The translations under genes and the position numbers were made by a program. This document shows, piece after piece, positions 5,008 through 63,915 of a stretch of 64,000 bases of DNA (position 1 is the stretch's first letter; each line of letters opens with the position of its first letter). The stretch comes from a virus, in IMG/VR virus record IMGVR_UViG_3300036846_000489, positions 1-64,000 of that record; one strand, written 5' to 3'. Under the pieces are notes generated by a model, which had not been told where the DNA came from, made no database searches, and was given only the letters and a program-made list of their open reading frames with translations.

Positions 5008-5508
5008 ATGGCACTGACACCAGGAGCGATGTCCGAAGGACCAAAGCCTGCTCCGACACCGTTCGATCAAACGGAAACACCGGCCAATGTCGCGGAAAGG
5101 GAAACACGGCTTCATGAAAAGGAAGCCATGCTCCGCGATATGCCGTTGATCGATGGCGCGCCGGAATATTGGGCGCTTTATCCGGAAGCGGTTGGCTTCC
5201 AATATCCGCCGGGCCAACAAGTCCTGCCATCCGGCATGTGGCCGTGGGAAAGCCCGGTGGCAAAATCCGCCAGGGCATTGCGTGGCGAAAATCCCAATGA
5301 GCCACCGCAGGATTACCAGGAAGTCGTTCTGGAAGCTCTCGGCTTCCCGTTTGTGCCGCATCTGCCCGAGGAAGAAAGGGCAAAGCGGGACGAGGCGAAA
5401 AGTGCCCACAGACAAGAAGCCACGGCAAGGGCACGGACTGCCCAGGAACAACGGGCCGCGCAGGCACAGCCCAATCGCTCCAACCCGCCTGCTGCTCACC
5501 AACACTAA
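5008..5508 (+). CDS. Hypothetical protein
   Basis: ORF abutting upstream stop. Confidence 0.55.
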   Translation: MALTPGAMSEGPKPAPTPFDQTETPANVAERETRLHEKEAMLRDMPLIDGAPEYWALYPEAVGFQYPPGQQVLPSGMWPWESPVAKSARALRGENPNEPPQDYQEVVLEALGFPFVPHLPEEERAKRDEAKSAHRQEATARARTAQEQRAAQAQPNRSNPPAAHQH

Positions 5509-5520
5509 TAGGAGGCATAA

Positions 5521-6027
5521 GTGGTAGCATTTCTCTATCGAATGGACGTTGGCTATCCCGGCGCGGTCAACCGCACCCAGCCGGCCACCGTGCAGGCGGA
5601 AATCCTCAATACCACCACCCCGCCACTCGGTTATGGCACCATGCTGGTCATGGACAGCGCAACCGGCACGCTGCGTCCACCCACCGGCACCGACACCTTG
5701 GCCGGCTTCGCCGGCCTCTATGTCCGGCCATACCCGAGGCAGAGCAACCTGAATATCAATGATCCACTCGGCACCGCCACACCGCCCACCACGGGCATGG
5801 GCGATGTGCTCAAGCGTGGCTACATGATCGTCAGGCTCAACACCGCGTCCCCGGCCGTCGTGAAGGGCCAGCCGGTCGGGGTATTTATCGGTGCCGCAAC
5901 GGCGGGAAATCCCGCCGGAGGTGTCACTGGAGCCGCGCCGGGAGCCACCGTTCTCGCTCTGACGAACTCACAATTCATGGGTCCGGCAGACGCAAATGGC
6001 ATGACTGAGATAGCCTACAACCTGTAA
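5521..6027 (+). CDS. Capsid decoration/cement protein
   Basis: FLYRMDVGYPGAVNR...DVLKRGYM...EIAYNL; directly upstream of the capsid gene; SD AGGAGG. Confidence 0.8.
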   Translation: MVAFLYRMDVGYPGAVNRTQPATVQAEILNTTTPPLGYGTMLVMDSATGTLRPPTGTDTLAGFAGLYVRPYPRQSNLNINDPLGTATPPTTGMGDVLKRGYMIVRLNTASPAVVKGQPVGVFIGAATAGNPAGGVTGAAPGATVLALTNSQFMGPADANGMTEIAYNL

Positions 6028-6041
6028 CGAAAGGAGACCGA

Positions 6042-7058
6042 ATGTCCGGCATGATCGGCCACAATGGTGGCCCACCGATGGGAGGGCAACTGCGGCCTCC
6101 CATGTTTACCTACGACGGGCTGTATACCAAAGACAGCACCGGCGCATTTCTGATCGGGGAATTGGAACGCCTCGACCAGACCCTTCACGGTCCACTGTTC
6201 ACCGTGACCTGGGGACGTGACATCGACCTCCGCGAAGACGTGACCGTGGGCGACGAATATTCGTCCTACACGAATTCATCCTTCGCTTCGGCCGGCGGCA
6301 TCAACCCCGCTGGTATTGCCTGGATCGCCAAGGACACGAATACGATCACAGGCGCTCAGTTGGACATCGGCAAGACGCCGCAGCCGTTGTTCCTCTGGGG
6401 CATGGAACTCAGCTACACCATGCCCGAACTCGCCTCTGCCATGCAGCTTGGCCGGCCCGTCGATGACCAGAAGTTCCAGGTCATCAGGACCAAGCACCAG
6501 ATGGACATCGACCAGTTGGTCTATATCGGTGACAGCACCGTGGGATCAGCCGGGCTGGTGAACCATCCGCTGGTGACAAACACCACGAACGTCACGGGTG
6601 GCACATGGCAAGCCGCCATCACGGCACAAACCCCAGCCGTCCTATTGCAGCAGATCAACGAACTGCTGACCTCGGTCTGGACCGCCTCGGCCTTCGCCGT
6701 GATGCCCGACCGTCTGCTCGTGCCTCCGGCACAATTCTCGCAGCTCGTCAGCAACATCGTGTCGAGTGCCGGCAACATCTCCATCCTGCGCTTTCTTCAG
6801 GAAAACAACCTCGCCGCCACGGCGGGGAAGACCCTGGAAATTCAGCCGGCCAAGTGGCTGATCGGGAGGGGCGCAGCCGGCGCGCAACGCATGATGGCCT
6901 ACACCAAGAACTACGACTACGTCCGCTATCCGATGACCCCACTGCAACGCACCCCGCTGGAGTGGCGTTCCCTCTACAACATTACAACTTACTGGGGCCG
7001 CCTCGGCATGATCGAGGTGGTGTATCCCGAACTCATCGGCTACCGCGACGGCATCTGA
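6042..7058 (+). CDS. Major capsid protein (DUF2184, HK97 fold)
   Basis: DSTGAFLIGELERLDQ, TWGRDIDLREDV, YWGRLGMIEVVYPE. Confidence 0.92.
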   Translation: MSGMIGHNGGPPMGGQLRPPMFTYDGLYTKDSTGAFLIGELERLDQTLHGPLFTVTWGRDIDLREDVTVGDEYSSYTNSSFASAGGINPAGIAWIAKDTNTITGAQLDIGKTPQPLFLWGMELSYTMPELASAMQLGRPVDDQKFQVIRTKHQMDIDQLVYIGDSTVGSAGLVNHPLVTNTTNVTGGTWQAAITAQTPAVLLQQINELLTSVWTASAFAVMPDRLLVPPAQFSQLVSNIVSSAGNISILRFLQENNLAATAGKTLEIQPAKWLIGRGAAGAQRMMAYTKNYDYVRYPMTPLQRTPLEWRSLYNITTYWGRLGMIEVVYPELIGYRDGI

Positions 7059-7169
7059 CCGTCGCAATCATTTATTCACATTCCTCTGAGCTATGCGGTG
7101 GGCAGATTATCCCGCAGACTTGCGCACGTTCGCCGCACCAAATTGCCGACCCGACAGGGAGCTACGCTC

Positions 7170-7583
7170 ATGATCATCCACGTCGCGAAGAAGTTCACCT
7201 TCCAGCACAACCCAAGGCAGACCGGGTCATACTTCGACGAGAAGGAAAAGAAGGAGTTGCCGGTGTTCGCCCTGGAAGGCGACCGCCAAGACTTTCTTCC
7301 CGGCATCTACGACGTGCCGGAATACGTCGCGAACCACTGGTATGTGCAGGCCCATCTGGAAGGCTTCGTCGAACCGATGCCGCAGAGGGGCCAGCCGGAC
7401 TATGCCCAGCGCGCGGCCATAGCAGCGAGAGCGGGCCGAAACACAACCAGCGTTGAAGAAGCCGCGCCCCGCCCCGCCCCGCCTCCACCGGGCGTCCAGC
7501 CGGCTCCCAGGCACTACTTCGCCGGTCAGCCCATAGAGGACAAGGAACGACCGGAGGCACCGTCCTGGATGTCGGGGAGGTAG
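7170..7583 (+). CDS. Phage protein following the capsid gene (STY1053-like)
   Basis: IHVAKKFTF...PGIYDVPEYVANHWYVQAH. Confidence 0.6.
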   Translation: MIIHVAKKFTFQHNPRQTGSYFDEKEKKELPVFALEGDRQDFLPGIYDVPEYVANHWYVQAHLEGFVEPMPQRGQPDYAQRAAIAARAGRNTTSVEEAAPRPAPPPPGVQPAPRHYFAGQPIEDKERPEAPSWMSGR

Positions 7584-7586
7584 CCG

Positions 7587-8141
7587 ATGCCACTCACCGA
7601 GAAGGGCGAGAAAATCCTGGAGAATATGGAAGAGACCTATGGGTCTGAAAGGAAGGCCAAGTCCGTGCTCTACGCATCCAAGAACGCCGGCAAGATCAGT
7701 GGCATCGACCAAGGTCCGCTGCCGTCATCCATGCCGACCGCGAGCATCGCACCGAACGCCGGCAGTCCCACAGCGGCGAGTGCCACACCGCCACCGACGC
7801 CCAGCAGTCCGGTCACCGGAGACGACGACAACACCGATGGGCCGAAGGGGGTATTGAAGCCAATCGGGGAAATGCCGGAAGAGAAGGCGATCAAAAGCAA
7901 CAATCCCGGCGGACCATCTGGCACGCCCGACGCGGCTGAAACCAAGGAAGGAGAGTGGCCGCCAATACCAAAGAAGCCGATCCTGGGTTCGACTGCGCCC
8001 AAGCCTGGACGCATCAAGACCGCATACGGCTGGGCCGGAAAGGATGAACCCGGGCAGCGCAATCTCGCCAAGGATCGTCCGCCGGATAAGGCGGTCGGCA
8101 CACTGAGAGACTACGCCGCAGCGGCAGGGGCAAAGCGGTGA
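7587..8141 (+). CDS. Hypothetical protein, ordered N-terminus plus Pro-rich tail
   Basis: MPLTEKGEKIL...YASKNAGKISG; SD GGAGG. Confidence 0.6.
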   Translation: MPLTEKGEKILENMEETYGSERKAKSVLYASKNAGKISGIDQGPLPSSMPTASIAPNAGSPTAASATPPPTPSSPVTGDDDNTDGPKGVLKPIGEMPEEKAIKSNNPGGPSGTPDAAETKEGEWPPIPKKPILGSTAPKPGRIKTAYGWAGKDEPGQRNLAKDRPPDKAVGTLRDYAAAAGAKR

Positions 8142-50455: not shown

Positions 50456-50842
50456 TCCCCTTCGGGGTGTGGTGTCCTTCCACAGAGAGCCGGGCGATCC
50501 CGTCGCTCGGCTCTCACCACATCTGGCGCGAGAAGGGGCTTGACCGCGCAAGATGAGCGAAGGCATGCTTTCCCTATCGTCGCGGGATCGCACACCTTGG
50601 AGCCAGCTATGTGACCTGCTAGCGCAGCATTATGAATGGATACGGAATTGGTGTGCTACCTGTTGGGCATCCAGCGACGCGGGTAGAAGCCGGGATAGTC
50701 TTTTCCTTCTTGCCACCACTCACGAGCAAGTTTCGGCGCTCTCAGTAGGGCCGCGTCGCGTTCTTCCCCTAGAGACAGCAGGTGGAAGTAGGCTCTGAAT
50801 ACCAAGGCACGATGTTCCCCCACCCGCATGTCCAGGTGGCGG

Positions 50843-51697: not shown

Positions 51698-51942
51698 GAG
51701 GATTTCCTGTCCAGCTTGATGTCGTGGGTGCGGTGGCCGTATGATCTACCGGTTCTTATGGCATCGACCAGTTCCTCCATCAGTTCAACAAACTCATGAG
51801 GGGGTGTGGTCGAGACCACGCGATTTTTCTTTTCTCCCGCCAGTCGATAGATCAGCAGCCAGTCACCGTCATCGCCTATTGCCTTGGCGAGAAACTGACC
51901 TACGGCATCAGCTATGAATTCATCCTCTTTGTCTTCGGTCAT
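51694..51942 (-). CDS. Cassette gene, hypothetical
   Basis: Start preceded by AAGGACACCAAATG. Confidence 0.65.
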   Translation of the reverse strand: MTEDKEDEFIADAVGQFLAKAIGDDGDWLLIYRLAGEKKNRVVSTTPPHEFVELMEELVDAIRTGRSYGHRTHDIKLDRKSS

Positions 51943-52014
51943 TTGGTGTCCTTTTCCTGTTTCCAGCGAAGTGCTGGTGCAGAGAGCCACGCCCCACGGG
52001 ACGCGCTCCCTGCA

Positions 52015-52266
52015 TCAATGCTTCGTCTCCGCAGCGTCTTTTAAGGCGGTGAGTTTGAGGATTAATTTCACTAGCATCGTCAATAGGCTCGACCGAATTT
52101 CTGCGGTGTCCTTGTCGTCTTCCCCATAATGCCCAGCAACCCATATGGCGGTTAGTTCGGCGAGAACTGCGCCCTGTATGGCTGAGGACTTGCCAGCCAG
52201 GATCGGCTTGATCTGACCGATCAGAGCGATTATTTCCTCTACGTCTTTCTTGGCGAAATCGGTCAT
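52015..52266 (-). CDS. Cassette gene, hypothetical
   Basis: LAGK...IQGAVLAEL.A.WVAGH; stop lies in type B element. Confidence 0.65.
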   Translation of the reverse strand: MTDFAKKDVEEIIALIGQIKPILAGKSSAIQGAVLAELTAIWVAGHYGEDDKDTAEIRSSLLTMLVKLILKLTALKDAAETKH

Positions 52267-53309
52267 CAACGCACCTCGTAGTGGGAACGGTTGGACTTGA
52301 AGCTCTTCCGCTGTTCCTCGGTAGCATTGACCAGTGTGTCCGCGATCCAGATCGACCGACCCGTGGCGTAGTTTCTCGGGTGTCCCATGCGGATGTGGAA
52401 CTGCGGACTTGCGTGGTGCCCGCCCAGACCTTCGCTCCGCTCCCGATGACCGCGTGCCAGAATAGCCGTGACATACGGCTCACTAAGCACCCGGTCGTAG
52501 TGCGGGATCGGCGGCTTCCGGCTTTTCATCCTGGCACGTTGCAATTTCTCCGGTGGCCGAACTGTCTCCCGATCCACCCCGCGCGTGGCGAGGATCATCA
52601 GGCAACAGATAATCGGGTCACCGATATTGCAGCTTGCCGCCTCGTGGGCCGATTGTCCGTTGTTCTGCAAGGCACGGAATTCATCGTCGGCGACGAACCG
52701 CAGAATAGACGGTGCCACTTGGGAAATATGGTCAACGCCAAGTTCCGGTGGCGGCACCATGAACATGCCACGGTCACCGATTACCAGGAGTTGCTGGTAA
52801 CCGAGCGTCAAGGGCTGAAGCTCGCAGACTTCGAAGGTCGTGTCGGAAGGACGATTGACCAGATAGACCGCTATCGCCTTGGTTTCTGGCAACACCACTG
52901 GCTGAGGGCCTGCGCCCTTCCAGATGAGGTTATGATCCCAAGTGTGGTAGCAAATCCACGGGTCGGAAAATGGGAAACCCAAGGCTCCCATATTCCACAT
53001 CTTCCCGCCACGCTTCGCGCATTCCGAGATGACCAAGTTCGGCAAGTGACCGAAGTCGATGACCCTGCCGGCTGTCACCGCATCGCGGCACCGAAGGGAG
53101 ATCAATTCAACCTCCCTCTGTGTCGAGGCGTATTCACGGCTCTCGGGAAGCAACCGCATGTTCGATGACTGGAAACCGGTGACGCGAAAATCGAGCACCG
53201 CGTCCCGCATCTGCGTGACGGTTGGTCTCCACTCCATGTCCAGCGACATAGTTAGCTCCTGCCCGAAGATCACCTGACCTTCGGGAGTTCTCATTAGTCT
53301 CGGTTCCAT
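52266..53309 (-). CDS. Cassette gene with C-terminal HxRxGH motif
   Basis: Conserved start sequence; HASPQFHIRMGHPR. Confidence 0.75.
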   Translation of the reverse strand: MEPRLMRTPEGQVIFGQELTMSLDMEWRPTVTQMRDAVLDFRVTGFQSSNMRLLPESREYASTQREVELISLRCRDAVTAGRVIDFGHLPNLVISECAKRGGKMWNMGALGFPFSDPWICYHTWDHNLIWKGAGPQPVVLPETKAIAVYLVNRPSDTTFEVCELQPLTLGYQQLLVIGDRGMFMVPPPELGVDHISQVAPSILRFVADDEFRALQNNGQSAHEAASCNIGDPIICCLMILATRGVDRETVRPPEKLQRARMKSRKPPIPHYDRVLSEPYVTAILARGHRERSEGLGGHHASPQFHIRMGHPRNYATGRSIWIADTLVNATEEQRKSFKSNRSHYEVR

Positions 53310-53379
53310 TTGGTGTCCTTCTCTGTGTCCCCTGGTCGGGGCGAGGACAGCACCGATGCCGGCGCTGCCTTCGTCCAGA

Positions 53380-53997
53380 TCAGCGAATATCAACCTTTTT
53401 CGCCGCGCCTTGCTCAAGAGCGGCTTTGAGTATCTGTTGGGCGGCATCGCGTTCTTCGAAGGTTGGCTCCCTTTCCGGCAGAACCTCGGCAAAACTTCCC
53501 ATTATGAAACTCTGCGGGTCAGAGGTCTTTTCATCCTTTACCCCGGTGCATTTGCCTTTCGCGTTTCTTACGACTTCGGCTTGTGCCACGGCGGTAAGGC
53601 GTTCACCGGTATCGTCGTTGCGCCATATGATCTGTGCTATGACGACTTCTTGGCGATCTTCCCGTTGGCTCGGCATGACCTCGGGATATTCTGGGTCCGG
53701 TTCTCCTGGCTTGCTGCTCGCAATCCAGGCTTCGCCGATGAAGGCGACGGCGAACCCGTTGTCGGCTATACAGATGAGCCGGGCCATTTCCCGGTGTCCG
53801 CGTTTTTCCTTGTCGTCGTAGTTGTTCATTCCGCCGACACCTATCGGGGTAACTCTATGGGCGGCATGAACCACGAATAGCGGCATAAGGTGTCCTTCTT
53901 TGGTGATACACCGCTTGGCATATTCTAGATCAAGCCGAAGTTGTTTGGCATAATCGAACTTTCCCTTGGCGATGTTTGGTCCGGTTTTTCTCGGCAT
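53380..53997 (-). CDS. Cassette gene, hypothetical
   Basis: Conserved start sequence; EAWI...PSQREDRQEVV; TGA inside element. Confidence 0.75.
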   Translation of the reverse strand: MPRKTGPNIAKGKFDYAKQLRLDLEYAKRCITKEGHLMPLFVVHAAHRVTPIGVGGMNNYDDKEKRGHREMARLICIADNGFAVAFIGEAWIASSKPGEPDPEYPEVMPSQREDRQEVVIAQIIWRNDDTGERLTAVAQAEVVRNAKGKCTGVKDEKTSDPQSFIMGSFAEVLPEREPTFEERDAAQQILKAALEQGAAKKVDIR

Positions 53998-54070
53998 CTG
54001 GTGTCCTTCCTGTTCTCCCCTGGTCGGGGCGGTGACAGCCACGGAATATCCTTGGCTGCCCCCGTCTGGA

Positions 54071-54235
54071 TCAGGGCAAATACCTCTCAGCGACGTTCTC
54101 GCGCTTAATGAACTTCAGTAGGGCTGAATAGAATTCTTCCAGCCGTTGCTCGCCGTCCTGTTGCGACAGCCGTTGTTGCCAATGCTCCAGGAAATCCCAG
54201 GCATTGATCAACGCTCTTTCCCGGTCATAGAACAT
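54071..54235 (-). CDS. Cassette gene, hypothetical
   Basis: TGA inside element. Confidence 0.5.
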   Translation of the reverse strand: MFYDRERALINAWDFLEHWQQRLSQQDGEQRLEEFYSALLKFIKRENVAERYLP

Positions 54236-54458
54236 GAGCGGCCGCCAGCAGTAATCCAGCGACAATTCCGACCACCAGGAACAGGCTGAAGCCGCCCTGT
54301 CCTGGCCGTTCCCGATCCCGCCTTCTCTCGGTGATTTCGATGTTGACCACCACGCGCCGGGGCGGCCCGCCTGAAGGCGGGGGAGGATCGTTGTGGAAGG
54401 AATTGCCGTCCAGTAAGTAGTCGAATGAGCCACGCTTCGGCTCCTTGTTCTTCAGCAT
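54225..54458 (-). CDS. Small membrane-anchored protein
   Basis: C-terminal hydrophobic segment. Confidence 0.5.
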   Translation of the reverse strand: MLKNKEPKRGSFDYLLDGNSFHNDPPPPSGGPPRRVVVNIEITERRRDRERPGQGGFSLFLVVGIVAGLLLAAAHVL

Positions 54459-54685
54459 ATGCCCAACTCCTTCTTGGTCCGATCAACCAGATTTTCCCAC
54501 TCCTTGCAGGCATCTTCCAGCCAGTTGATTGACTTGGCCGATCCCTGAAATTCGTAGGTATCGCGATCAAAGTGAAGACCGTTGAGCACCTCTCTTGCCG
54601 CCGCTCTCATCGAACAGGCAACATCATACATCAATTGCTTGTTCGCTTTCATAGCGACGGCCTGATCTTCAGTTCTTTTCGGCAT
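54452..54685 (-). CDS. Cassette gene, hypothetical
   Basis: Conserved start sequence. Confidence 0.6.
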   Translation of the reverse strand: MPKRTEDQAVAMKANKQLMYDVACSMRAAAREVLNGLHFDRDTYEFQGSAKSINWLEDACKEWENLVDRTKKELGIC

Positions 54686-54790
54686 GGGTTTGGTGTCCTT
54701 CTCTATTCCCCGACCGACTGGTCGAGGCGACAACAGCACCGCGCAAGGCGGGCTGTTCCCGTCAGGATCAGCACGACAGTCTGGCGACCG

Positions 54791-55402
54791 TCAGTGGTAT
54801 CTCCGGTGGTTGCCGTCGGCGGACCAATTTACTTCGTGCCAGTCCGCGACCGGCCCAGGCACGGTCAGAACCGGCACGGCCAATGCCCCGATGATCCCAG
54901 CGGACGCCCTGCCCTCTACACCGGCCAGGACGATCAGCGTGCCACGAGTAAGGAGCGTGGCCTTTTGGTTCGGGAACAGAACCGGCTCCTTGGTATTATC
55001 GAGGCGATCAAGGCTGCTTTCGAATTCGGCAATTCCCTGTTCCCCCAGGCGGGTTGCCAGGGTGACAAGGGCGCCGTGGCTGTCAGCTTGAAGAATGAAA
55101 GACGCCATGGTTGACCACAGTGCTGCCCGGTCTTCCAGGTCGGTATTATTTATCTCTGGGACCGGGTCAGACCACCGAAGCATGTCGCAGATCATTCCCC
55201 GGTTGGGGGAGGCAAATACCACATGCCGCCCATAGCAGGCCGGGAGTGCTAGTTTCCCAGCTTCCTCTGAAGCGATGGCATCGACAACCTCCTGCAAGGT
55301 CGGAATACAGCGACGCAGTATTCGCTTCGTGCTCGGCTTTTGCGCGCGGCCTTTCACCACATCCTCTAAGGTCATGGTGGCGACGTGTTCTCCTAGTGTC
55401 AT
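54791..55402 (-). CDS. Cassette gene, hypothetical
   Basis: Conserved start sequence. Confidence 0.65.
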   Translation of the reverse strand: MTLGEHVATMTLEDVVKGRAQKPSTKRILRRCIPTLQEVVDAIASEEAGKLALPACYGRHVVFASPNRGMICDMLRWSDPVPEINNTDLEDRAALWSTMASFILQADSHGALVTLATRLGEQGIAEFESSLDRLDNTKEPVLFPNQKATLLTRGTLIVLAGVEGRASAGIIGALAVPVLTVPGPVADWHEVNWSADGNHRRYH

Positions 55403-55479
55403 GGGTTGGTGTCCTTCTCCGTCCTCGACTTCTGGTCGAGGCGGCGACAGCGCGGCTTCCCGTGCTGTCTCCGTCCAGA

Positions 55480-56637
55480 TCAGGGTCGTCTCCTGATGAC
55501 GTCATAATCGTCGTGAACAACGAAGCCGCGTGAGGCGTCGCCGCGTTCATGCTCCGGTCGCCACCAGCGTTTGCCGCCACAGTCCGAACAGACCCAATTA
55601 TCCGGATCGTCCGGCCCAGCGTCCGGCCACGGCAGCCATTTCGGTGGACCGTGGTTCGGTTCGAAGTTGTGGACGCACCCGGCGATCCTGGAATAATCGC
55701 GGGCTTCCTTGTTGTGGCAGTAGTGACCACGAACTTCGTGCCGGCGACGCGGCACAGCGTCACCCGCCGGGGTGCCGATCAGCCTTAAGGTCGGCACCGG
55801 ATCGATCTCTATGGTCACCGTGGTATGTGCCATGTAGGCCCGGAACTTGCCGCTGATGAAGCCAGGGGCATTCGGCAGAGAGTTCCGGTAGCTGGTCAGC
55901 GACGGCCGGTTGAGCATCAGCAGGATCGCGATGATCGTCCGAAAGTCGCCAATCGTGCCACGTGCCATGGACGCCATGCCGCCGTCAGCGGTCCATTTAT
56001 GGTAGGATGGATGGGCCGGATTGAGCGGCGTCTGTTCCATGACGTTGAACTCTCGCAGCACGCGCCGTTCGTCGTTGGTCAGGTTGTCCCAGGTTGATCC
56101 CCACATAAGCATGTCGAGGCTCATCCGAGAGCACCCGCACAGACGGGCGAATTCCAACTGATCGTCTATCGGCCATTCGGTTCTTAGTCGATACTGCATT
56201 CCGGTCACCTGCGGGTCAGTGACCGGGTTGGCCACCGTGCCGCCGCAGATGGTATTGATCCGATTATGGTCGATCAGATACCCGACCGTGTGATCGGCAC
56301 TGTCAAGTTCGCCATACCAGCCGGTATTTTCATACCGTCCTGGATCAGCGTCGCGTAGCACCTTCCAGTAAATCCACGAAGGCCACTCTATCCAGGTGAC
56401 CTCGAAAGGTGGTCTGGCGAAGCCGTGTTCCCGCACCAGAAGTGAAGGAATATCACGCACGACCTGGGCAATACGCTCCGCGGCCCGCTCGTCAAAGACG
56501 AACTTATGGGCGGCACGCATGGAGCGTTGAAGCATGTCCATGGTTTTCGGATGGACGAACCGCTCCTTGGCCGAAAACTTATGAGCCAAAAAGCGGTCAG
56601 CCAGTATTGGCCCCCGCTTGGTAGGTGTTTTGGCCAT
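55480..56637 (-). CDS. Cassette gene with HEVRGHY and Cys-rich C-terminus
   Basis: Start-sequence variant; RRRHEVRGHY, CSDCGG, HERGDAS. Confidence 0.75.
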   Translation of the reverse strand: MAKTPTKRGPILADRFLAHKFSAKERFVHPKTMDMLQRSMRAAHKFVFDERAAERIAQVVRDIPSLLVREHGFARPPFEVTWIEWPSWIYWKVLRDADPGRYENTGWYGELDSADHTVGYLIDHNRINTICGGTVANPVTDPQVTGMQYRLRTEWPIDDQLEFARLCGCSRMSLDMLMWGSTWDNLTNDERRVLREFNVMEQTPLNPAHPSYHKWTADGGMASMARGTIGDFRTIIAILLMLNRPSLTSYRNSLPNAPGFISGKFRAYMAHTTVTIEIDPVPTLRLIGTPAGDAVPRRRHEVRGHYCHNKEARDYSRIAGCVHNFEPNHGPPKWLPWPDAGPDDPDNWVCSDCGGKRWWRPEHERGDASRGFVVHDDYDVIRRRP

Positions 56638-56712
56638 GTTGTGTCCTTCTGTTCTCCCCGAGCATGTCTGATCGAGGCGGAAACAGCCATGCTGCTTCCG
56701 TCCGGATCAGGC

Positions 56713-56738
56713 AAAGAAAAGGGGAGCCGAAGCTCCCC
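56713..56738 (-). terminator. Intrinsic terminator (UUCG loop)
   Basis: On - strand: GGGGAGC-TTCG-GCTCCCC-TTTTCTTT. Confidence 0.8.
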
Positions 56739-56769
56739 ACAAAGTCTGGGTCGGATATTTTCTGCCGGT

Positions 56770-57408
56770 CTACGCCGACCGACGCCGCAACAGGGTCAGG
56801 CCGATCAGGCCCATCCCGAGGATCACAAGCGAGGCAGGCTCCGGCACGGCCGTCGCCGAAGCACTGATGTCACCCGCAAAGCTGGCATTGAAGGCGCCAA
56901 TTGTGCTGCCGTCCAAGGCAAGGGTGGGCAGCAGATTGGTGAACGCCAGATTGAACGAGCTTGGGGGCACCAACTCGTTGGCCGGAATGACGTTGCTGGC
57001 CAACGTGAGGCTCTCCGGGGGGTTGTTGACATTGACTGTCAGACCCGGCCCACCATTTGCCCCAAAGGCGGCATCGGTGAACGTGCCAGAGAGGAAGTTA
57101 CCCGTGCATCCGGCAGCACTTGAGATACAGAAGCTTCCCGAGTAATGCTGGATGATGTTGCCCGCTACCGTGATTGCCGCATCGATAGAATGCGCGGAGA
57201 GGGTCATCATGGCGCCAGGAATGGCACCGAGAATACCGCCGCCCAGCAAAGCTAGCTGGTTGGTGTAACTGATATTCGTCACGGTGCCATTGTCGGTCGC
57301 TACCACGGTATTCGTCGTGGCCTCCTGAGCGAAAGTCGTAAGCAAGGCGGCTTCCGCTACTGTCGGCAAGGCCACGGCGATGGTGGAGGCAAGCAAAAGT
57401 GCCTTCAT
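56770..57408 (-). CDS. PEP-CTERM sorted secreted/surface protein
   Basis: Signal peptide MKALLLASTIAVALPTVAEA; C-terminal VPEPASLVILGMGLIGLTLLRRR. Confidence 0.9.
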   Translation of the reverse strand: MKALLLASTIAVALPTVAEAALLTTFAQEATTNTVVATDNGTVTNISYTNQLALLGGGILGAIPGAMMTLSAHSIDAAITVAGNIIQHYSGSFCISSAAGCTGNFLSGTFTDAAFGANGGPGLTVNVNNPPESLTLASNVIPANELVPPSSFNLAFTNLLPTLALDGSTIGAFNASFAGDISASATAVPEPASLVILGMGLIGLTLLRRRSA

Positions 57409-57518
57409 CTGGTTTCCTTTCGGGTTGGTGTGAACACTCAGTCTCCCCGGCTTTGCTGGCCGAGGCCGGAACGCCCGCCACAGTTTCCTGTGGGGACGCT
57501 CCGGTCAAGGTCAGATTT

Positions 57519-57728
57519 CTACCGTCTCCGGTGGCTGGCATCTATAGGTTCGATGTCGGTCTCAACCTGACGGGGATCGCGGCCCTGTTGTATCCGCGAT
57601 ATCCTGGCGGGCAGGATGATATCCCGATTGCAGTCGTCGCAGCACCGGCCATGGTTGATCGGCTCCGCGTTGTTCCCGAACCGGGTGTATGGCCGCCCGC
57701 AGATCGTGCAGGCTCCGTTCTCATCCAT
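57519..57728 (-). CDS. Small zinc-binding protein
   Basis: CTICG...GNNAEP...GRCCDDCN. Confidence 0.7.
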   Translation of the reverse strand: MDENGACTICGRPYTRFGNNAEPINHGRCCDDCNRDIILPARISRIQQGRDPRQVETDIEPIDASHRRR

Positions 57729-58224
57729 CCTTGTTCTCCTCTTCCTTGCGCGGCATTCCGGAAAGAAGCTGACCGTAGGTGTGGAGCACCTCGGTCACCG
57801 GCTTGCCGTCTCGGAAGAACGTGATGGTTCCCGCCGCCTCTGAGGCGCGAGAGTTGCCCCAGGCGTCGAACTCGGCACGATCCATCCAAATGATGTTCCG
57901 ACGCAGCCATTCGACGGTGACCACCGGATCGACCGTGTAGTAGCCTCCCGGCACGTCTTCGTCTTCGACCTCTTCGCCCACAACCACACCGTTGCCGGCC
58001 ATTGGCTGGTCGGTGCGGAATGCGCAGAAGAAAAAGTGCATGGTTGGTTTCAGCAAGCCTTCCTCGTCCACGAACATCACATCTCCAGACGGGAACCGAA
58101 AGGCCGCTTCGATCCAGCCACCGATATAGTCACCGACGGTAGGAAGCTCGCCTTCGGCACTTTGTATGCGATATTCGACCTCACGGATTTCCCGCTTCAC
58201 GGCATCAATGAGAATTGCCTTCAT
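57721..58224 (-). CDS. DUF3846-like protein
   Basis: MKAILID, IGGWIE, FVDEEGLL, AGNGVVVG. Confidence 0.65.
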   Translation of the reverse strand: MKAILIDAVKREIREVEYRIQSAEGELPTVGDYIGGWIEAAFRFPSGDVMFVDEEGLLKPTMHFFFCAFRTDQPMAGNGVVVGEEVEDEDVPGGYYTVDPVVTVEWLRRNIIWMDRAEFDAWGNSRASEAAGTITFFRDGKPVTEVLHTYGQLLSGMPRKEEENKDG

Positions 58225-58308
58225 GGGTATTTGGTGTCCTTCCATTCAGTTTCCCCAGGCTGGCTGAGGCGAGGACAGCCACCGGCCTGAGCCGGCGCTG
58301 CCTTCGTC

Positions 58309-58491
58309 TTAGTCAGGGTCTATCGGCTCGTCGTGATCGTAGTTCGGATCGGTCAGAACCTCTGGCCGGAACGCGGCCAGCTTCTCCTTTTCGCATTTCC
58401 CGCACATGTATCCGAGAGGAATTCCCCTCGCATCCAGTCCGACCCACGGCCACTCGCCGCTGCCGCACGGGCATTCAGTCAGCATCGCCAT
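58309..58491 (-). CDS. Small zinc-binding protein
   Basis: CPCGSG...DARGI....C.KC...FRPEVL. Confidence 0.65.
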   Translation of the reverse strand: MAMLTECPCGSGEWPWVGLDARGIPLGYMCGKCEKEKLAAFRPEVLTDPNYDHDEPIDPD

Positions 58492-58778
58492 CATGGTTCT
58501 CCGTCGTGGCCAACGGCTTTCTGGTCCGCCACGCCATCGACGGTGCGATGGCGTCCGGCGTATTCCCACTGGACCTGATGGAAGCGTTCGATATTCGCGA
58601 TGTCACGAATATCCAACTTGAACCCCAGAGCCAAGTAGATTAGTTCCAAATCGCCTTGGTTGAGCCGGTCGAGGTTGGGCAAGGTGGCATGAGGGATGCC
58701 ACAGTGCTCAATGATCCACTCACGGATGACGCGGACCAGTTCGTATTTGTCTGGCCGCATCTTGGGAGGAAGCGACAT
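58491..58778 (-). CDS. Hypothetical protein
   Basis: TGATG-coupled to upstream minigene; SD GGGAGG. Confidence 0.55.
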   Translation of the reverse strand: MSLPPKMRPDKYELVRVIREWIIEHCGIPHATLPNLDRLNQGDLELIYLALGFKLDIRDIANIERFHQVQWEYAGRHRTVDGVADQKAVGHDGEP

Positions 58779-58894
58779 CACGCTGCCTCCCGAGGGTCTT
58801 CAGTATTTATCGGCATTTGGTGTCCTTTCCAAAGTCCTCGGCGAACTGGCCGAGGCGGCGGTAGCCACGACAAGCGCAGCTACCCCCGTCCAGG

Positions 58895-59113
58895 TCAGAT
58901 CAACTTGATCTCGACAGAAGTGACCGTGTAGGGGCCGTTGCAGCCAAGGCCGGGAGAGCCATACACGGCCTTCCCGTGGGTCAGTTCCCAGAAGCTTTTC
59001 TGCCGAGCCTGAAGGTAGACATCATCAAGCTCACCTTCGCAGATCGACTTTGTCTCCCAGGTCTGGCCCTTGGCAGCGGTGCCACGAAGGGTGCAGTTGT
59101 AGAGGCGGATCAT
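58895..59113 (-). CDS. Cassette gene, hypothetical
   Basis: LTHGKAVYGSPGLGC.GPY; TGA inside element. Confidence 0.6.
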   Translation of the reverse strand: MIRLYNCTLRGTAAKGQTWETKSICEGELDDVYLQARQKSFWELTHGKAVYGSPGLGCNGPYTVTSVEIKLI

Positions 59114-59445
59114 GCCGGCCTCCTTATGAACTCTCGGCCCGGCCTGGACCGAATACCATGGATCAGATCGTCATGTTCTGTAGCGAACCGAACCATGGCA
59201 CGGCGAAGGTCCAGCATCACGTCGCAGATTTTCCGCAGGCGATCCACCTCTTTCTGATCCATCGGAAACTCCGACAACTGCGCCATGGCATCACAGAGGT
59301 TCGATACCATCGCGTTCATCCGGCCCAGGATCAGGTCTTTCTGATCGGTCTCTTTCTGGTATTTCGCCATCAACAAAGCCATGCTGGAACGCGCTTCTCG
59401 CGCTTCAGCCTTCGCCTGTTGCAGCGGTGTAGGGTTTCGAGGCAT
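59110..59445 (-). CDS. Cassette gene, helical
   Basis: Conserved start sequence. Confidence 0.6.
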   Translation of the reverse strand: MPRNPTPLQQAKAEAREARSSMALLMAKYQKETDQKDLILGRMNAMVSNLCDAMAQLSEFPMDQKEVDRLRKICDVMLDLRRAMVRFATEHDDLIHGIRSRPGREFIRRPA

Positions 59446-59520
59446 TTGGTGTCCTTCCGTTCTCCAGCGCAAACGCTGGTGCAAAGAGCCACGGGCCATT
59501 GCTGACCCGCGCTCCTTGCA

Positions 59521-59991
59521 TCAAGGTTTGTTTGCTTCTCGCGCTATCCGCTCGTCTTCCTTCGTCGCATAATGAGGAAGTTCGCGCAGAGAAAGGCGGG
59601 GCCTTCCAGGCTTTTTTGGCCCAGGTGTTCTTTCCCGTTTCTTTTCCGGTGCTCGCTTTCCCAGCCTATGGGCTTTGGTAGGCGCAAAAAGTGTGAGTTT
59701 GCCGTAGACAAACCGTCCTTCGGTATCGAATTGACGAATGACTTCTGGCCAGTGGTTGACGTATCTCAGCCAGTGTTTTGCCCCTTCTTCTAGCACATAA
59801 GCTCGGTATTTATAGACTATCGCTGCCCGAGCGCCTTCGCGCATTAACGAACGAGCCCAAGGGCAGTCGCACGGATCGTTGGGGCAGGCGCCCTTGATAT
59901 CAACAAGAAGAGCCACGACAGGTCTATTCTTCTTCGCGTCCACTATGGGTAGTCCTAGAAAGGCTGGATGGTTTCTCATCATGGATGCCAT
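59521..59991 (-). CDS. Cassette gene, hypothetical
   Basis: Conserved start sequence; DPCDCPWARSL. Confidence 0.7.
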   Translation of the reverse strand: MASMMRNHPAFLGLPIVDAKKNRPVVALLVDIKGACPNDPCDCPWARSLMREGARAAIVYKYRAYVLEEGAKHWLRYVNHWPEVIRQFDTEGRFVYGKLTLFAPTKAHRLGKRAPEKKRERTPGPKKPGRPRLSLRELPHYATKEDERIAREANKP

Positions 59992-60084
59992 TTGGTGTCC
60001 TTCTCTGTTTCCTGGTCCGGGTCTGGCCCAGGCGGAAACAGAAACGGCCCCCGAAAGGGCCGCTCTGCTACCGTCACGGTCAGA

Positions 60085-60351
60085 TCATCCCCGCCGCGTG
60101 ATGGTCACGTCGTATCCCTTGTCCACGATTTTCTGGATCAGAATTTCCAGGTCTTCGTGATCGTCGGGGAAAAGCATGTGCAACAGCTTTTTCACCTTGG
60201 CGGGACGCGGCTGGGCGTTGCCGTTCTCGATCTGCGACAGATAGCCATTGGACAATCCGGCACGTTCCGCGAGAGCGGTCTGAGACAAACCGCGTTCCTC
60301 ACGGGCTTGCCTGATCTTTTCGCCCAGGTCGGGGCTGTCGAAATTCACCAT
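60085..60351 (-). CDS. XRE-family HTH regulator
   Basis: KIRQAREERGLSQTALAERAGLSNGYLSQIENG. Confidence 0.88.
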   Translation of the reverse strand: MVNFDSPDLGEKIRQAREERGLSQTALAERAGLSNGYLSQIENGNAQPRPAKVKKLLHMLFPDDHEDLEILIQKIVDKGYDVTITRRG

Positions 60352-60353
60352 GG

Positions 60354-60569
60354 TCAACCTCCTGTCTTCCACCATCGGCCGTGATCGCCCAGAGTGTATT
60401 TCTGGCCGACCCCGACGCCGAGGCCAAAGCCGAACAGAAGATGGCATCTCAGGCACATCATTGCCCACGGCCCCCGACGGGTTGCTCCATCAACAAAGTC
60501 GGTGTTGAGGGAGCCGCGGCAGATGGCACAGGCAACAGGCTTGCTGCCTTGCCAGTAAAGCTTGGTCAT
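60354..60569 (-). CDS. Small zinc-binding protein
   Basis: CAIC...FVDGAT..GPWAMMC..C...G.GLG.G.GQKY. Confidence 0.7.
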   Translation of the reverse strand: MTKLYWQGSKPVACAICRGSLNTDFVDGATRRGPWAMMCLRCHLLFGFGLGVGVGQKYTLGDHGRWWKTGG

Positions 60570-60654
60570 TTGGTGTCCTTTCCGTTTCCCCCGATCCGCT
60601 GATCGAGGCGGTGGCAGCACCGCACAGCGGCGGGCTGCCCCCGTCCGGATCAGA

Positions 60655-61209
60655 TCATTCCATCCAGAAACAATTATACCGTTCGCGTTTCGCCATCCGG
60701 CACTTCAGGTTGTTCGCCTCGGCGATCCCTCGCAGATAGGCGAACCACTTCGCACTGGTCTGACCCGTGTGATCGCTGAGTTCCTTTCTCGAAACCCCCT
60801 GCGGCCGGCGAGATTGCTCGACTGCCCAATCGACGAACCCGGCGGGCAGTTTGGAGAGGCTGGGACCGCCCTTGATCTCCGGCCCCCGGTATTCCCCAGG
60901 CTCGACTTCTTCCGGCTTGGGAGAAGCCTCAGCGGCCTTCCTGGCAGCCTTCTTCGGCGCCGGCGCTTTCTTCGCGGTCGGTGCCGCCGCTTTCTTCTTC
61001 TTCGCAGCCTCGATACGCACGACGTTGCTTCCTTCATCGTCAGGAAGCGGACGATCAATCAGGCACCACTTGCCTTCAGCATTCTGTCCCGGCATGTGGT
61101 CGGCACCGAGCAGACGCAGACCGGAGCGCTTGAACTCCTTCTCCATGTCTTCCTTGCTGTCCCATGTCCGAGTTTGTGCCTCGACAATGGTCATGCGTGT
61201 AGCGGCCAT
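60655..61209 (-). CDS. K/A-rich protein with DUF3489-like winged helix
   Basis: AKKAPAPKKAARKA; RRPQGVSRKELSDHTG. Confidence 0.6.
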   Translation of the reverse strand: MAATRMTIVEAQTRTWDSKEDMEKEFKRSGLRLLGADHMPGQNAEGKWCLIDRPLPDDEGSNVVRIEAAKKKKAAAPTAKKAPAPKKAARKAAEASPKPEEVEPGEYRGPEIKGGPSLSKLPAGFVDWAVEQSRRPQGVSRKELSDHTGQTSAKWFAYLRGIAEANNLKCRMAKRERYNCFWME

Positions 61210-61319
61210 GAATGTGTCCTTCTGTCCGTGGTGGAAATTCCCGGGACTGGCCCAGGCGGAAAAAGCGTGGGGCAGAGGTTTCCCCCTGCCCCGAGTTGTT
61301 TCCGTCACGGTCAGTCAGA

Positions 61320-61739
61320 TCAGGCGCGCTTGCGCACTGCGATCTTGGTCAGCTTGAACACCGGCTTGCCGCCAGAGACGCTGTAGGCGAGGCCGTTGCT
61401 CGTGGCCAACCGTTCTACCCATGGCCGCCACGCCACTTGGTTCTGTCCGGCTCGGCGCGCCAGCATGGCCCGCGTTACCCCTCCCGGACTGGACGCCATC
61501 TCCAATACCATCTTCGCGAAATCCTTCGGCAGGATGGTATCGTTGACCGGCGGCATCGGCGTTCTGGCTTTTCTCGGCGCTCTGGCTTTTCTTTCTGCCC
61601 GAGGCTTCCGAGCCGACTTCTTCGCTTCCCGGCCCGGTTTCGGGCCTTGACGCCCCCCGGCCACTACCTTGAACTTCTCTGGCACCGCAGCCATGCGGGC
61701 TGAGGCGCTGTTCTTTTTCTTGATTACGGTCTTAGCCAT
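61320..61739 (-). CDS. Basic protein with DUF3489-like winged helix
   Basis: K/R-rich N-half; MASSPGGVTRAMLARRAG. Confidence 0.6.
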   Translation of the reverse strand: MAKTVIKKKNSASARMAAVPEKFKVVAGGRQGPKPGREAKKSARKPRAERKARAPRKARTPMPPVNDTILPKDFAKMVLEMASSPGGVTRAMLARRAGQNQVAWRPWVERLATSNGLAYSVSGGKPVFKLTKIAVRKRA

Positions 61740-61850
61740 TGTCTTAACCCTCTTGTTCGAAGACGCACGCCCGCAGTCGGGACGTGCCCCCGGCATACTG
61801 GCCGAGGCCGCAGCACCACCACGGTTTCCCGTGGGGTGCTCCGGTCCGGG

Positions 61851-62036
61851 TCAGGTATCGAAGTCGCGGCGATGCGCCGCTAGGATTTCCGCGATTTCCT
61901 CTGATGGGATCGGCTCGGCCCGATAGAGGATATCGATGTCCGGCACTTTGCTGATGATCATCCGGTAGCCGGGTGGCATTTTCTCCAGCAACATGAGAAT
62001 GGTTGCTGCCACGTCGGCATTTTCATCGTTTACCAT
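61851..62036 (-). CDS. Cassette gene, hypothetical
   Basis: SD AGGAG; TGA inside element. Confidence 0.55.
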   Translation of the reverse strand: MVNDENADVAATILMLLEKMPPGYRMIISKVPDIDILYRAEPIPSEEIAEILAAHRRDFDT

Positions 62037-62328
62037 CCGTTTCTCCTTGCCCTAAAAAGCGAAAGCTGAGACCGTGATTGCCGTCGTTCTCCCCGACAAA
62101 GGATATCGCTGGATGCCCCTCGATCAACAGAAGGTCTTCGTAGAAGCTGTCCCATTCGTCGATCACGGTATCCATCTCTTCCCCTTCTTTCGGGTAGTTC
62201 TCGGCTATGTAGGCGTCGAGCGACATCTGCCGAGCCAATAATACGGCGTTGCCTTCTTCCTGGGCATTCACCCGGATCGCTTGCATGTAGCCTTCGTCTC
62301 CTATCAGGATGACGGTGTAGGGTTGCAT
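62023..62328 (-). CDS. Cassette gene, acidic
   Basis: Conserved start sequence. Confidence 0.6.
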   Translation of the reverse strand: MQPYTVILIGDEGYMQAIRVNAQEEGNAVLLARQMSLDAYIAENYPKEGEEMDTVIDEWDSFYEDLLLIEGHPAISFVGENDGNHGLSFRFLGQGETDGKR

Positions 62329-62400
62329 TTGGTGTCCTTTCTCCCGAACCATTCTGGCCCAGGGAGAAACGTCGTCCGCAGACGACGCTTCCCTCACAGG

Positions 62401-62652
62401 TCAGGCTTCTTGGGGTTCGCCAAACAATTCCTTCCACATCTCGACCGTGGAGAACTGTTCGACCAGCTTCTTCGCCTCGTCCTCTGGCTGCGGCTCTATG
62501 CTCATGGTTTCGTAGCTCTTGACGAAGAGGTAGAACCGGGAGCTTGCGGTGCGATACAGGATCGCATGATCCCAGTGGAGATACTGGCCGAGGTCGCAGA
62601 TCGGCTTTCCCTTATCCGTATCGTAGAGAACGCCGTCGATTATTTTCTGCAT
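62401..62652 (-). CDS. Cassette gene, small protein
   Basis: KIIDGVLYDTD...LYRT....FYL...EA...FGEPQEA. Confidence 0.7.
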   Translation of the reverse strand: MQKIIDGVLYDTDKGKPICDLGQYLHWDHAILYRTASSRFYLFVKSYETMSIEPQPEDEAKKLVEQFSTVEMWKELFGEPQEA

Positions 62653-62735
62653 TTGGTGTCCGTCCTTCTGTCTCCCGTGCCAACCACTGGCCCAGGCGAG
62701 GACGGCCACGGTTCCCCGCGCCGCCTTCGTCTTGG

Positions 62736-63032
62736 TCAGATAAGTGGTTTCCATCCACCCCATGGGGGAAGCTCTTCGCCCCACCGTTTCTTCGGCTTCA
62801 CCCTCTTGCTGCGTGCGGTCACCGCCCGATCATGGGCGGCTCCCAACGCGGCATCCGACATTGGTTTCTCTTTCGCCCGAGACCAGCTATCGCTTGGCCC
62901 CACACGAAGCCGAACCTCTGGCACGCTTCCATAGGGCAGACCCTTCGCCTTGGATTTCCGGTTGGGATTTCCCTGACGAAGGAACTTCCTGCCCTTCGGA
63001 TACGACCAGTTAATCCGAGACTTTTTCTTCAC
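62736..63032 (-). CDS. Basic hypothetical protein
   Basis: GTG start; TGA inside first element. Confidence 0.45.
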   Translation of the reverse strand: MKKKSRINWSYPKGRKFLRQGNPNRKSKAKGLPYGSVPEVRLRVGPSDSWSRAKEKPMSDAALGAAHDRAVTARSKRVKPKKRWGEELPPWGGWKPLI

Positions 63033-63199: not shown

Positions 63200-63880
63200 T
63201 GTCTGTCCTTCCGTTCACACTCGTGCTCTGTCTTGGGGGCTTGCAACCCTCGGCAACCTTTCGGCTGACGGCGACATTCCGACCGACCCCCGTAGGGGCC
63301 GGGCGGTGAACAGAGGTTAAGGACACACCAAATTTTCGTATGAATACAACCGAGACTGTTTCGCCCTTCCCGCCCGCAAGATCGCCTCACGGCTACCCTT
63401 ACGACTTGTTCTCAGGCTAGGCTGTATCCACACGCCCGTATCCATTCACAATGCTGGCTTACACGCTGACGCCAGCAGACATCCGACAACCCTGCTCACG
63501 CCCACCGGGCGTTTTTCTAGGTGTCGGTGTATCTACTGTGTCAGCCAGAGCGGGGCGCTCTTGGCAGGCTTACAAGGATCGCGCTCTCCCGGTATTCCCA
63601 ACGCGCATTGATCCAGGGGGGTTTATGTTGCTGCCCATTTCGCCTTGCCAGTCTGATACCCTTTGCGACCTCTGTTGAGGTCGGGCCTTCTGGGTGGCAC
63701 TATGGCGTGGCCGTGGTCCGCTCCTTGACACACTGTCGGCCAGCGTGTCACCTCGGACACCGTCCACTTGCACCTCGGAAGTTCTTTCCTCGCACGCTTG
63801 CAGCGCCCCATCTTCACCTGTCAAAGAACCCGCCGGGGTCGAAGGCGGGGCGGCCCGCCGCCCCTTTTCCTCCCGGCCAT
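63200..63880 (-). ncRNA. Long structured 5' leader / candidate ncRNA
   Basis: No SD-supported ORF; long imperfect stems (e.g. 63466-63546, 63301-63366); lies between promoter and first gene. Confidence 0.55.
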
Positions 63881-63886
63881 TTTAAG

Positions 63887-63915
63887 ATCATAGCAAATTT
63901 TACCAGGTTTGTCAA
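63887..63915 (-). promoter_or_regulatory. Near-consensus sigma70 promoter with extended -10
   Basis: On - strand: TTGACA-17 nt-TATGAT, with TG one base upstream of the -10 (TGcTATGAT). Confidence 0.85.

Follow-up and report, generated by a model that had tools for sequence, protein, structure and literature searches.

Organization of the gene array

The window analyzed here is a 64,000-nucleotide stretch of virus DNA, the first 64 kb of record IMGVR_UViG_3300036846_000489, and its subject is a repeated spacer element between the genes of one operon. The record, 75,088 bp from soil, is rated complete, and about 124 bases at its start are repeated at its end as a terminal overlap. PHROGs matches include a head maturation protease, a major head protein, a tape measure protein, a tail fiber, an Erf-like annealing protein and a primase/helicase; with head and tail genes named, the record is therefore a tailed phage. 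Its DNA is present in two soil metagenome runs. The array block lies on the minus strand, running for about 13 kb from 63.9 to 50.5 kb, and holds about 30 small genes. They are grouped in cassettes of one to three translationally coupled open reading frames (ORFs) each, and between the cassettes stand 16 repeated stop-to-start spacers, 14 of type A and two of type B, all on the coding strand.

The block has a single strong sigma-70-type promoter, followed by a leader of about 680 nt and then the gene array. A promoter search of the block found no promoter-like site within any of the 16 elements. A phage RNA polymerase was not matched in the genome search, in which its control was unmatched too. 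The only Pfam matches among the array genes are an HTH_3 domain, DUF3846 and a PEP-CTERM tail.

In type A copies the order on the mRNA, 5' to 3', is a tail (C-U-G-A-Y-C-N-N-G-A, positions 1-10), a first hairpin (HP1), a middle segment (C-C-Y-N-R-N-Y-C-A-G), the 3' arm of a second hairpin (HP2), which pairs back onto the middle segment, an A/G-rich linker and the ribosome-site motif of this phage, GAAGGACACCAAAUG. We define the long stem as positions 1-20 against the 20 nt ending in CCAG, with HP1 as its upper stem from position 11. The resulting inverted repeat of 20 positions is imperfect, with a variable center of 3 to more than 25 nt, and its ends are CTGAYC ... GRYCAG in all copies. Only the partner of stem positions 4-10 serves as the 5' arm of HP2, and HP1 adjoins HP2 without a spacer. 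The two HP2 arms, CCYC and GRGG, resemble an anti-Shine-Dalgarno/Shine-Dalgarno (SD) pair. Type B copies keep YUGA...CCAG around a different HP1 and have the same topology as type A. The promoter and one type A copy, dissected for reference, are as follows.

63887..63915, minus strand: sigma-70-type promoter, TTGACA, 17-nt spacer, TG, TATGAT, 11 of 12 matches
55400..55483, minus strand: type A element, reference dissection
55474-55483, minus strand: tail, CUGAUCUGGA
55442-55473, minus strand: HP1
55423-55441, minus strand: HP2
55432-55441, minus strand: middle segment shared by HP2 and the long stem, CCUCGACCAG
55408-55416, minus strand: ribosome-site motif, AAGGACACC
55400-55402, minus strand: AUG

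Two hairpins in each element

A first-pass annotation of this DNA had proposed that every element carries a second, short hairpin. HP2 lies directly 3' of the long stem in 14 of 14 type A and two of two type B copies, and the individual hairpins that had been picked out at 55423, 57445, 58836, 60011, 60589 and 61788 are all present, as is the type B pairing ccagc/gctgg. Its energy in the 16 copies ranges from -7.4 to -16.5 kcal/mol. HP2 is also found in a close relative, IMGVR_UViG_3300045044_000009 (loci L024 and L048), which has seven full type A and two degenerate copies, and in seven copies on the metagenome contig Ga0126373_10003934 (L096). The pairs of its arms change together, as GAC/GUC, GGC/GCC, GAUC/GAUC, GGG/CCC and CAG/CUG. 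Cognate arms fold at -11.45 kcal/mol versus -8.39 kcal/mol for non-cognate arms, and none of 5000 permutations was as low (p<2e-4), so the significant covariation on which the annotation had made the hairpin depend is there. It had also read the third pair of HP2 as a mark of the mRNA. On the mRNA strand this pair is found as U-A, U.G or C-G, so that 5 of 14 copies form a less stable HP2 on the opposite strand. HP2 is real and, to judge by the G.U pairs that it carries on the sense side, looks like a structure of the mRNA.

HP1 carries marks of the same strand. On the sense strand, 12 of 25 copies cap HP1 with a GNRA or UNCG loop; on the antisense strand none of the 25 does, where chance would give roughly 5%. 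The element at 56635..56710, downstream of the PEP-CTERM gene, differs from its L048 ortholog by three compensatory double changes in HP1, with the G.U pair at position 16 kept. Judged by these loops and changes, HP1 is a predicted sense-RNA hairpin. For the mRNA, 14 of 16 copies have HP1 plus HP2 as their minimum-energy fold. Neither hairpin is followed by a U-tract in the elements, except at the HP1 apex of the copy at 61207-61314. According to the folding models, then, the two-hairpin fold is the mRNA ground state, and both hairpins show compensatory changes.

Our preferred explanation, which we give about an even chance of being correct, is that the element is a static two-hairpin intercistronic module, equipped with a standard ribosome site and acting at the same time as the junction between cassettes. 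Transcription would yield a single long early mRNA of the phage, with a module placed between successive cistrons. Each module would present, in order, the upstream stop region (YUGA), a GNRA- or UNCG-capped HP1, HP2, an unstructured A/G-rich linker, and the SD sequence with its AUG. The static hairpin pair would punctuate the polycistronic RNA, may limit the stretches of naked RNA open to Rho or RNases, and may supply protective ends should the RNA be cut. The module would also insulate a standard open ribosome site from the upstream coding sequence, whatever that is. At the DNA level, repeats of about 80 bp could double as homology for recombinational shuffling of cassettes, with the Erf-like annealing protein as a candidate agent.

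Stop codons and the question of a two-state switch

The first-pass annotation held the long stem and the short hairpin to be mutually exclusive. This is correct for HP2 and the basal third of the stem (positions 4-10), but the upper two thirds, HP1, coexist with HP2. The 5' tail and the 3' arm of HP2 each covary with one and the same middle segment, CCYNRNYCAG; two exclusive covarying helices are thus found, with few independent events for the basal one. This arrangement, common to types A and B, suits a two-state mRNA switch in which a resting long stem is melted by a ribosome terminating at the UGA, HP2 forms, and translation or antitermination is relayed to the next gene. We consider such a switch very unlikely. 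In its favor, the basal helix can form first during transcription, and the middle segment covaries with both partners; against this, no more than one or two ancestral events may lie behind the covariation seen at positions 5 and 6 of the tail.

The link to the upstream stop codon, also part of the original proposal, is partial. In 9 of the 16 elements the upstream ORF ends at the embedded UGA; in the other seven it ends at a different stop. Across the three phages it is the stop in 18 of 30 copies by a longest-frame heuristic, versus one third expected by frame, and the stop lies within 9 nt in 25-26 of 30. From these counts a stop at the UGA is commoner than frame chance, which speaks for a switch, yet it is not obligatory, and the seven copies here that do without it speak against one, as does a copy that sits 63 nt beyond a terminator. 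In one orthologous set the element follows a terminator, 60 nt past the stop. The tail (CUGA and GA) and CCAG are invariant even in copies where the UGA is not a stop.

Folding energies weigh against the switch. On the sense strand, forcing the basal helix costs 0.2 to 9 kcal/mol, a broad and untuned gap, and the full long stem has a Boltzmann probability (P) below 0.03 in 12 of 14 copies, and of 0.016 or less in five of seven L048 copies. When a ribosome footprint is masked at the UGA, HP2 stays and the SD sequence remains mostly unpaired, with a mean unpaired probability of 0.60, versus 0.61 free, and with accessibility moving both ways among individual copies. A ribosome at the UGA was supposed to melt the long stem and free HP2; HP1 plus HP2 is already the predicted ground state of the free mRNA, and masking is without effect. 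Nor is a relay of translation borne out, given the near-identical accessibilities and the rarity of the long stem, and a relay of antitermination lacks an object, since the elements have no terminator to antiterminate, one terminator-like HP1 apex excepted. Neither balanced states nor a trigger that shifts them was seen in the energy gaps and footprint masks, and neither the SD sequence nor a terminator was found to depend on the state. The weak long-stem state, the lack of effect of masking and the broad gap mean that thermodynamics gives a relay no support; on the folding predictions, a ribosome-driven two-state relay is not supported. Kinetic or protein-assisted switching may occur. We also considered pairing of the 3' arm of HP1 with the SD sequence once HP1 is melted, and rejected it, as some copies allow it and others do the opposite, with no consistent direction.

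Strand asymmetry of the long stem

Over the 280 cells of the long stem in 14 copies, 201 are Watson-Crick, 19 G.U, 32 A.C and 28 other. When 19 copies from two phages are aligned with the covariance model, 11 of the 20 pairs have changes on both sides. None of 500 shuffles equaled the observed covariation, and in slid controls it drops to one third. Stem position 7 is unpaired throughout. An A.C mismatch occupies position 10 in all 19 copies and position 4 in 15 of them. Positions 8 and 16 carry G.U on the mRNA, the latter in 8 of 19 copies.

The first-pass annotation saw in its mismatches a long stem biased to the other strand. The A.C mismatches on the mRNA at positions 4 and 10, which are G.T on the plus strand, bear this out, but the G.U pairs at positions 8 and 16 and the sense-strand tetraloops do not. 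Every basal-helix mismatch on the sense strand is A.C or C.A, that is, G.T on the plus strand, and the basal helix alone fares better on that strand, while HP1 and HP2 carry sense-strand signatures. Folding of both strands, as the annotation had advised, gave the long stem as the dominant structure on the antisense strand, but HP1 plus HP2 on the sense strand. In RNA folds of the antisense strand the full long stem is the minimum-energy structure, with P of 0.64-0.95 in 12 of 14 copies, and in L048 its P is 0.51-0.96 in 7 of 7. With DNA parameters, the plus strand gives the long stem as the minimum in 7 of 14 copies, with P>0.5 in four, the same direction and weaker. In these folds the strand asymmetry is real and conserved. 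For the basal helix it is partly trivial, because the UGA supplies the A at position 4 and the C opposite that A also takes part in a C-G pair in HP2; copies with U instead of C opposite position 4 have A as the HP2 partner. Two further candidates were dropped. A closing helix of the stop region (UCUGG/UCCGG) with the spacer ACAGA/ACGGA occurs in four combinations without covariation, and antisense terminators were rejected because no T-runs follow the plus strand hairpins.

The asymmetry raises the possibility of a dual-strand code, with HP1 and HP2 acting on the mRNA and the long stem acting on plus strand single-stranded DNA or antisense RNA, as a structure-specific signal for recombination or replication that moves cassettes, an integrase-less analog of attC. 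The annotation had offered a similar alternative, a long stem on the opposite single-stranded DNA and a short one on RNA. The part about HP2 as an mRNA hairpin and a basal helix favored on the opposite strand holds, but HP1, the upper part of the long stem, is sense-RNA. We think a dual-strand code unlikely. The long-stem probabilities on the two strands, the direction of the basal mismatches, the cassettes in one orientation with indels and permutations at elements, and a shape like that of folded attC (a 6-bp helix, then a 2x2 loop, a further 5 bp up to a mismatch, and a stem and loop that vary) all speak for it. Against it, the complete 75-kb genome has no match to PF00589, the tyrosine recombinase family, in a search where all positive controls matched, and no serine recombinase or HUH/Y1 transposase was found there. 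The attC-like part of the alternative is further at odds with the palindrome ends, which are CTGAYC/GRYCAG and not RYYYAAC/GTTRRRY. The modest result with DNA parameters, the RNA-type tetraloops and sense-strand G.U pairs of the upper stem, and the chance that the asymmetry is a side effect of the stop codon and of HP2 pairing at position 4 also count against this code.

In coliphage T7 early mRNA, RNase III processing hairpins, irregular helices of about 20 bp with internal loops, stand between cistrons. Like them, the long stem is an irregular helix of about 20 bp, or two turns, with an internal loop between cistrons, and RNase III or another endonuclease could capture this conformer and cut the internal loop at positions 7-8. 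Such cleavage would separate the cistrons, remove the 5' arm of HP2 and open the downstream leader. The conserved 2x2 internal loop, the fixed non-Watson-Crick positions and the invariance of the 5' tail and CCAG fit a processing site, as does the general analogy to T7. Unlike the T7 sites, the helix here is the predicted minor conformer on naked RNA, and no RNase III gene was found in the complete genome of this phage. We regard both the cleavage and the consequences just described as distinctly improbable.

The preferred reading, a static module, has to be weighed against several of these observations. The basal helix is strongly favored on the opposite strand, which hints at a second functional layer. 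A static model does not explain why the CUGA/GA tail and CCAG are invariant where the UGA is no stop, nor why positions 5 and 6 of the tail change in step with the middle segment, which they match in 19 of 19 copies. Insulation and stability as roles are inferred from the design of the module, and recombination at the repeats may be a by-product and not a function. The pairing of YUGA with CCAG at the base would be, by the folding estimates, a weak alternative contact on the mRNA, a residue that the static model leaves unaccounted for. That the spacer is either a strand-resolved dual code (about 60 nt encoding both two mRNA hairpins and one long irregular hairpin, the latter on the opposite strand or as a minor RNA conformer captured by a protein or ribosome, where cassettes are cut or joined) or a true termination-sensing bistable element seems to us rather unlikely.

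Copies of the element

The remaining 15 copies are listed below from the promoter-proximal end of the array.

62650..62739, minus strand: type A, CUGA to AUG; HP2 62674-62696; covariance-model score 67.8 bits; the embedded UGA is the upstream stop
62326..62404, minus strand: type A, divergent; HP2 62341-62366; covariance-model score 33.7 bits; HP1 loop UGCG
61737..61854, minus strand: type A; HP2 61788-61807; HP1 loop GAAA; a third hairpin before a non-standard ribosome-binding site
61207..61314, minus strand: type A; HP2 61240-61256; real stop 9 nt upstream of the embedded UGA
60567..60653, minus strand: type A; HP2 60589-60608, 8 bp, U.G on the sense strand; real stop 5 nt upstream
59989..60083, minus strand: type A; HP2 60011-60032; strain joints 59462 to 60019 and 59416 to 59989
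59443..59524, minus strand: type B; HP1 59480-59520 with a GCAA loop; HP2 59464-59479 (CCAGCG/CGCUGG); the embedded UGA is the stop
58814..58898, minus strand: type A; HP2 58836-58855; its AUG starts a 12-codon upstream ORF
58222..58316, minus strand: type A; HP2 58253-58269 (CCUCAG/CUGGGG); one of two copies in which the basal helix wins on the sense strand
57406..57514, minus strand: type A, upstream of the PEP-CTERM gene; HP2 57445-57465; HP1 loop GAAA
56635..56710, minus strand: type A, upstream of the 385-aa gene; HP2 56656-56677; preceded by a terminator-like hairpin at 56721-56738
54683..54771, minus strand: type A; HP2 54708-54727; real stop 23 nt upstream; strain joint 54458 to 54715
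53995..54074, minus strand: type A; HP2 54017-54029, the 4-bp CCCC/GGGG form
53307..53383, minus strand: type A; HP2 53329-53341, 4-bp form
51940..52018, minus strand: type B; HP2 51963-51977

The terminator-like HP1 apex of the element at 61207-61314 spans 61269-61292 on the minus strand, a 10-bp GC hairpin followed by a U-run, and is the sole such case. The basal helix of the copy at 60567..60653 is perfect (CUGAUC/GAUCAG). Where the element's AUG opens the upstream ORF (58778-58816, minus strand), the UGA of this ORF shares bases with the real gene's AUG (GUGAUG); that gene is served by a separate ribosome site, GGGAGG. The element AUG at 53997 adds 37 in-frame codons before an internal copy of the ribosome-site motif: within the ORF at 53380-53997 (minus strand), AAGGACACC and an AUG stand in frame at 53886, 37 codons in. 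Two start sites, or fusion of a cassette downstream of the element's AUG, would account for this arrangement. In both copies the module extends as far as the AUG itself.

Distribution of the element and exchange of cassettes

A covariance model finds the element only in this phage, L048 and L096, and it found no copies in 29 loci of relatives whose 385-aa protein is 57% identical or less. In the more distant relatives genes abut or overlap, those of L049 being tightly packed. Repeat searches in four other distant relatives gave no analogous element of hairpins plus ribosome-binding site. One distant relative, L068, has at 5335-7873 a repeated start motif of its own, GGAGGGCUGAGCCAUGA, in four copies, along with a 75-nt repeated upstream block; lineage-private standardized starts may recur in this phage group. 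A first pattern scan of viral contigs returned mostly single chance matches and one real relative, L024. Pattern scans of metagenomes and bacterial genomes returned 58 loci, among which the covariance model confirmed L096, with its seven copies, and possibly L091. No copy was confirmed in the loci returned from bacterial genomes by this pattern, which required the phage's own ribosome-site motif AAGGACAC. Five kb of the array had no blastn match to deposited phages. Against Rfam, the window had no match at gathering score and the elements had none at E<=1.

The cassettes differ in order and presence between the carriers. In this phage the PEP-CTERM cassette precedes the 385-aa cassette; in L048 and L096 the order is reversed. 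The terminator plus element downstream of the PEP-CTERM gene travels with that gene in all three carriers. Contigs of related strains from the two soil runs lack single cassettes, with joints in elements or at an element AUG (59462 to 60019, 59416 to 59989, 62342 to 62712 and 54458 to 54715). One contig from run X1, at depth 4.5, has a back-joint from 60591 to 60023 with 12 other letters between. It would fit a circle or a tandem duplication of a 71-aa gene and a helix-turn-helix gene, with a hybrid element.

Such a distribution is also what selfish palindromic repeats might give, of the kind of miniature inverted-repeat transposable elements (MITE), repetitive extragenic palindromic sequences (REP) or enterobacterial repetitive intergenic consensus sequences (ERIC), had they spread in this lineage and been tolerated between genes. 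They would account for the restriction to one small clade with absence from more distant relatives, and for ends like terminal inverted repeats. We hold this to be highly improbable, as the copies share one orientation, sit in this operon only, and run exactly from stop to start with SD and AUG. Compensatory changes between orthologous copies and sense-strand tetraloops also disagree with it, no transposase was found, and the scan for bacterial loci with a pattern requiring AAGGACAC yielded no confirmed copies.

Two features of the relatives bear on the spacers. In L024 (680-3000), an upstream array has a different spacer, a terminator-like GC hairpin followed by TTGAACAAAGGACC and then AUG, and these TTGAACAAAGGACC spacers stand before paralogous small genes. 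The motif TGAAC(A/G)G also occurs between HP2 and the SD sequence in many type A copies of L048 and L096.

Other features of the operon

The 385-aa protein (55480-56637, minus strand) has invariant Cys and His residues and belongs to no Pfam family. It has 107 homologs, many on contigs of 68-85 kb, and therefore marks a wide uncultured phage group. The operon leader has a weak match to the twister type-P1 ribozyme at 63220-63283 (minus strand), a short way ahead of the first genes. The score is 32 bits versus a gathering score of 67.2 (E 7.5e-05 on an 851-nt stretch), and in the alignment several conserved blocks fit and others do not. At two places the standard ribosome-site motif occurs in reverse complement (UGGUGUCCUU-like): in the leader RNA at 63317-63340 on the minus strand, and in a plus strand hairpin at 50457-50538, at the far end of the array. 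The two sites could be regulators, in cis or in trans, that oppose the ribosome sites of all 16 starts.

Comparison with known systems

In architecture the element is closest to the start-associated sequence (SAS) and extended start-associated sequence (ESAS) of mycobacteriophages, and in evolutionary behavior to the promoter early stem-loop (PeSL) cassettes of T4-type phages; in the defining features of both, and of integrons, it departs from them. In cluster K mycobacteriophages, SAS is a conserved sequence directly upstream of many starts in the non-structural part of the genome (PMC3203893; PMC12699233). ESAS, an imperfect inverted repeat of about 17 bp with a variable 4-13-bp spacer, precedes SAS in one orientation, and its function is still unverified (PMC3203893; PMC12699233). 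Like ESAS, the element here has an imperfect inverted repeat with a variable center upstream of a start-associated sequence, a match of architecture only. The motif here, GAAGGACACCAAAUG, does not fit the SAS consensus, GGGATAGGAGCCC (PMC12699233), within two mismatches, and the two sequences are unrelated. The hosts belong to different phyla as well, and unlike ESAS/SAS, the repeat here takes in the upstream stop, is joined by a second covarying hairpin and coincides with cassette breakpoints.

PeSLs are repeated modules of a sigma-70 promoter and a terminator that flank small ORFan genes in a plastic region, and recombination at them inserts, deletes and reorders genes between close relatives (PMC2839356; PMC4122927). 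Gain, loss and shuffling of genes between relatives are likewise seen at the modules here. Unlike PeSLs, these elements have no sigma-70 promoter and normally no terminator, and they lie inside one transcription unit, from stop to start.

As in integrons, promoterless cassettes in the same orientation stand behind one promoter. Like attC, the element is an imperfect palindrome with conserved ends, a variable center, an internal loop and predicted strand-asymmetric folding. Unlike integrons, this phage has no IntI or other tyrosine recombinase, and the palindrome ends carry no RYYYAAC/GTTRRRY cores; unlike attC, the element includes the ribosome site and the AUG, and its upper stem has RNA signatures on the coding strand.

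Implications

If a dual code were to prove true, it would be an attC-like cassette system, its recombinase unknown, native to the operon of a lytic-type phage. The competition of two covarying helices with strand asymmetry could also help separate RNA-level from DNA-level selection on palindromes. If the static module is the correct reading, this phage clade would possess a plug-and-play linker that leads from a stop through two insulating hairpins and a standard ribosome site to a start, which would let unrelated accessory genes swap within one operon and still be expressed. Such a linker would provide a sequence-defined model for the unexplained ESAS/SAS of mycobacteriophages, a non-promoter counterpart to PeSL shuffling and a set of natural insulator parts.

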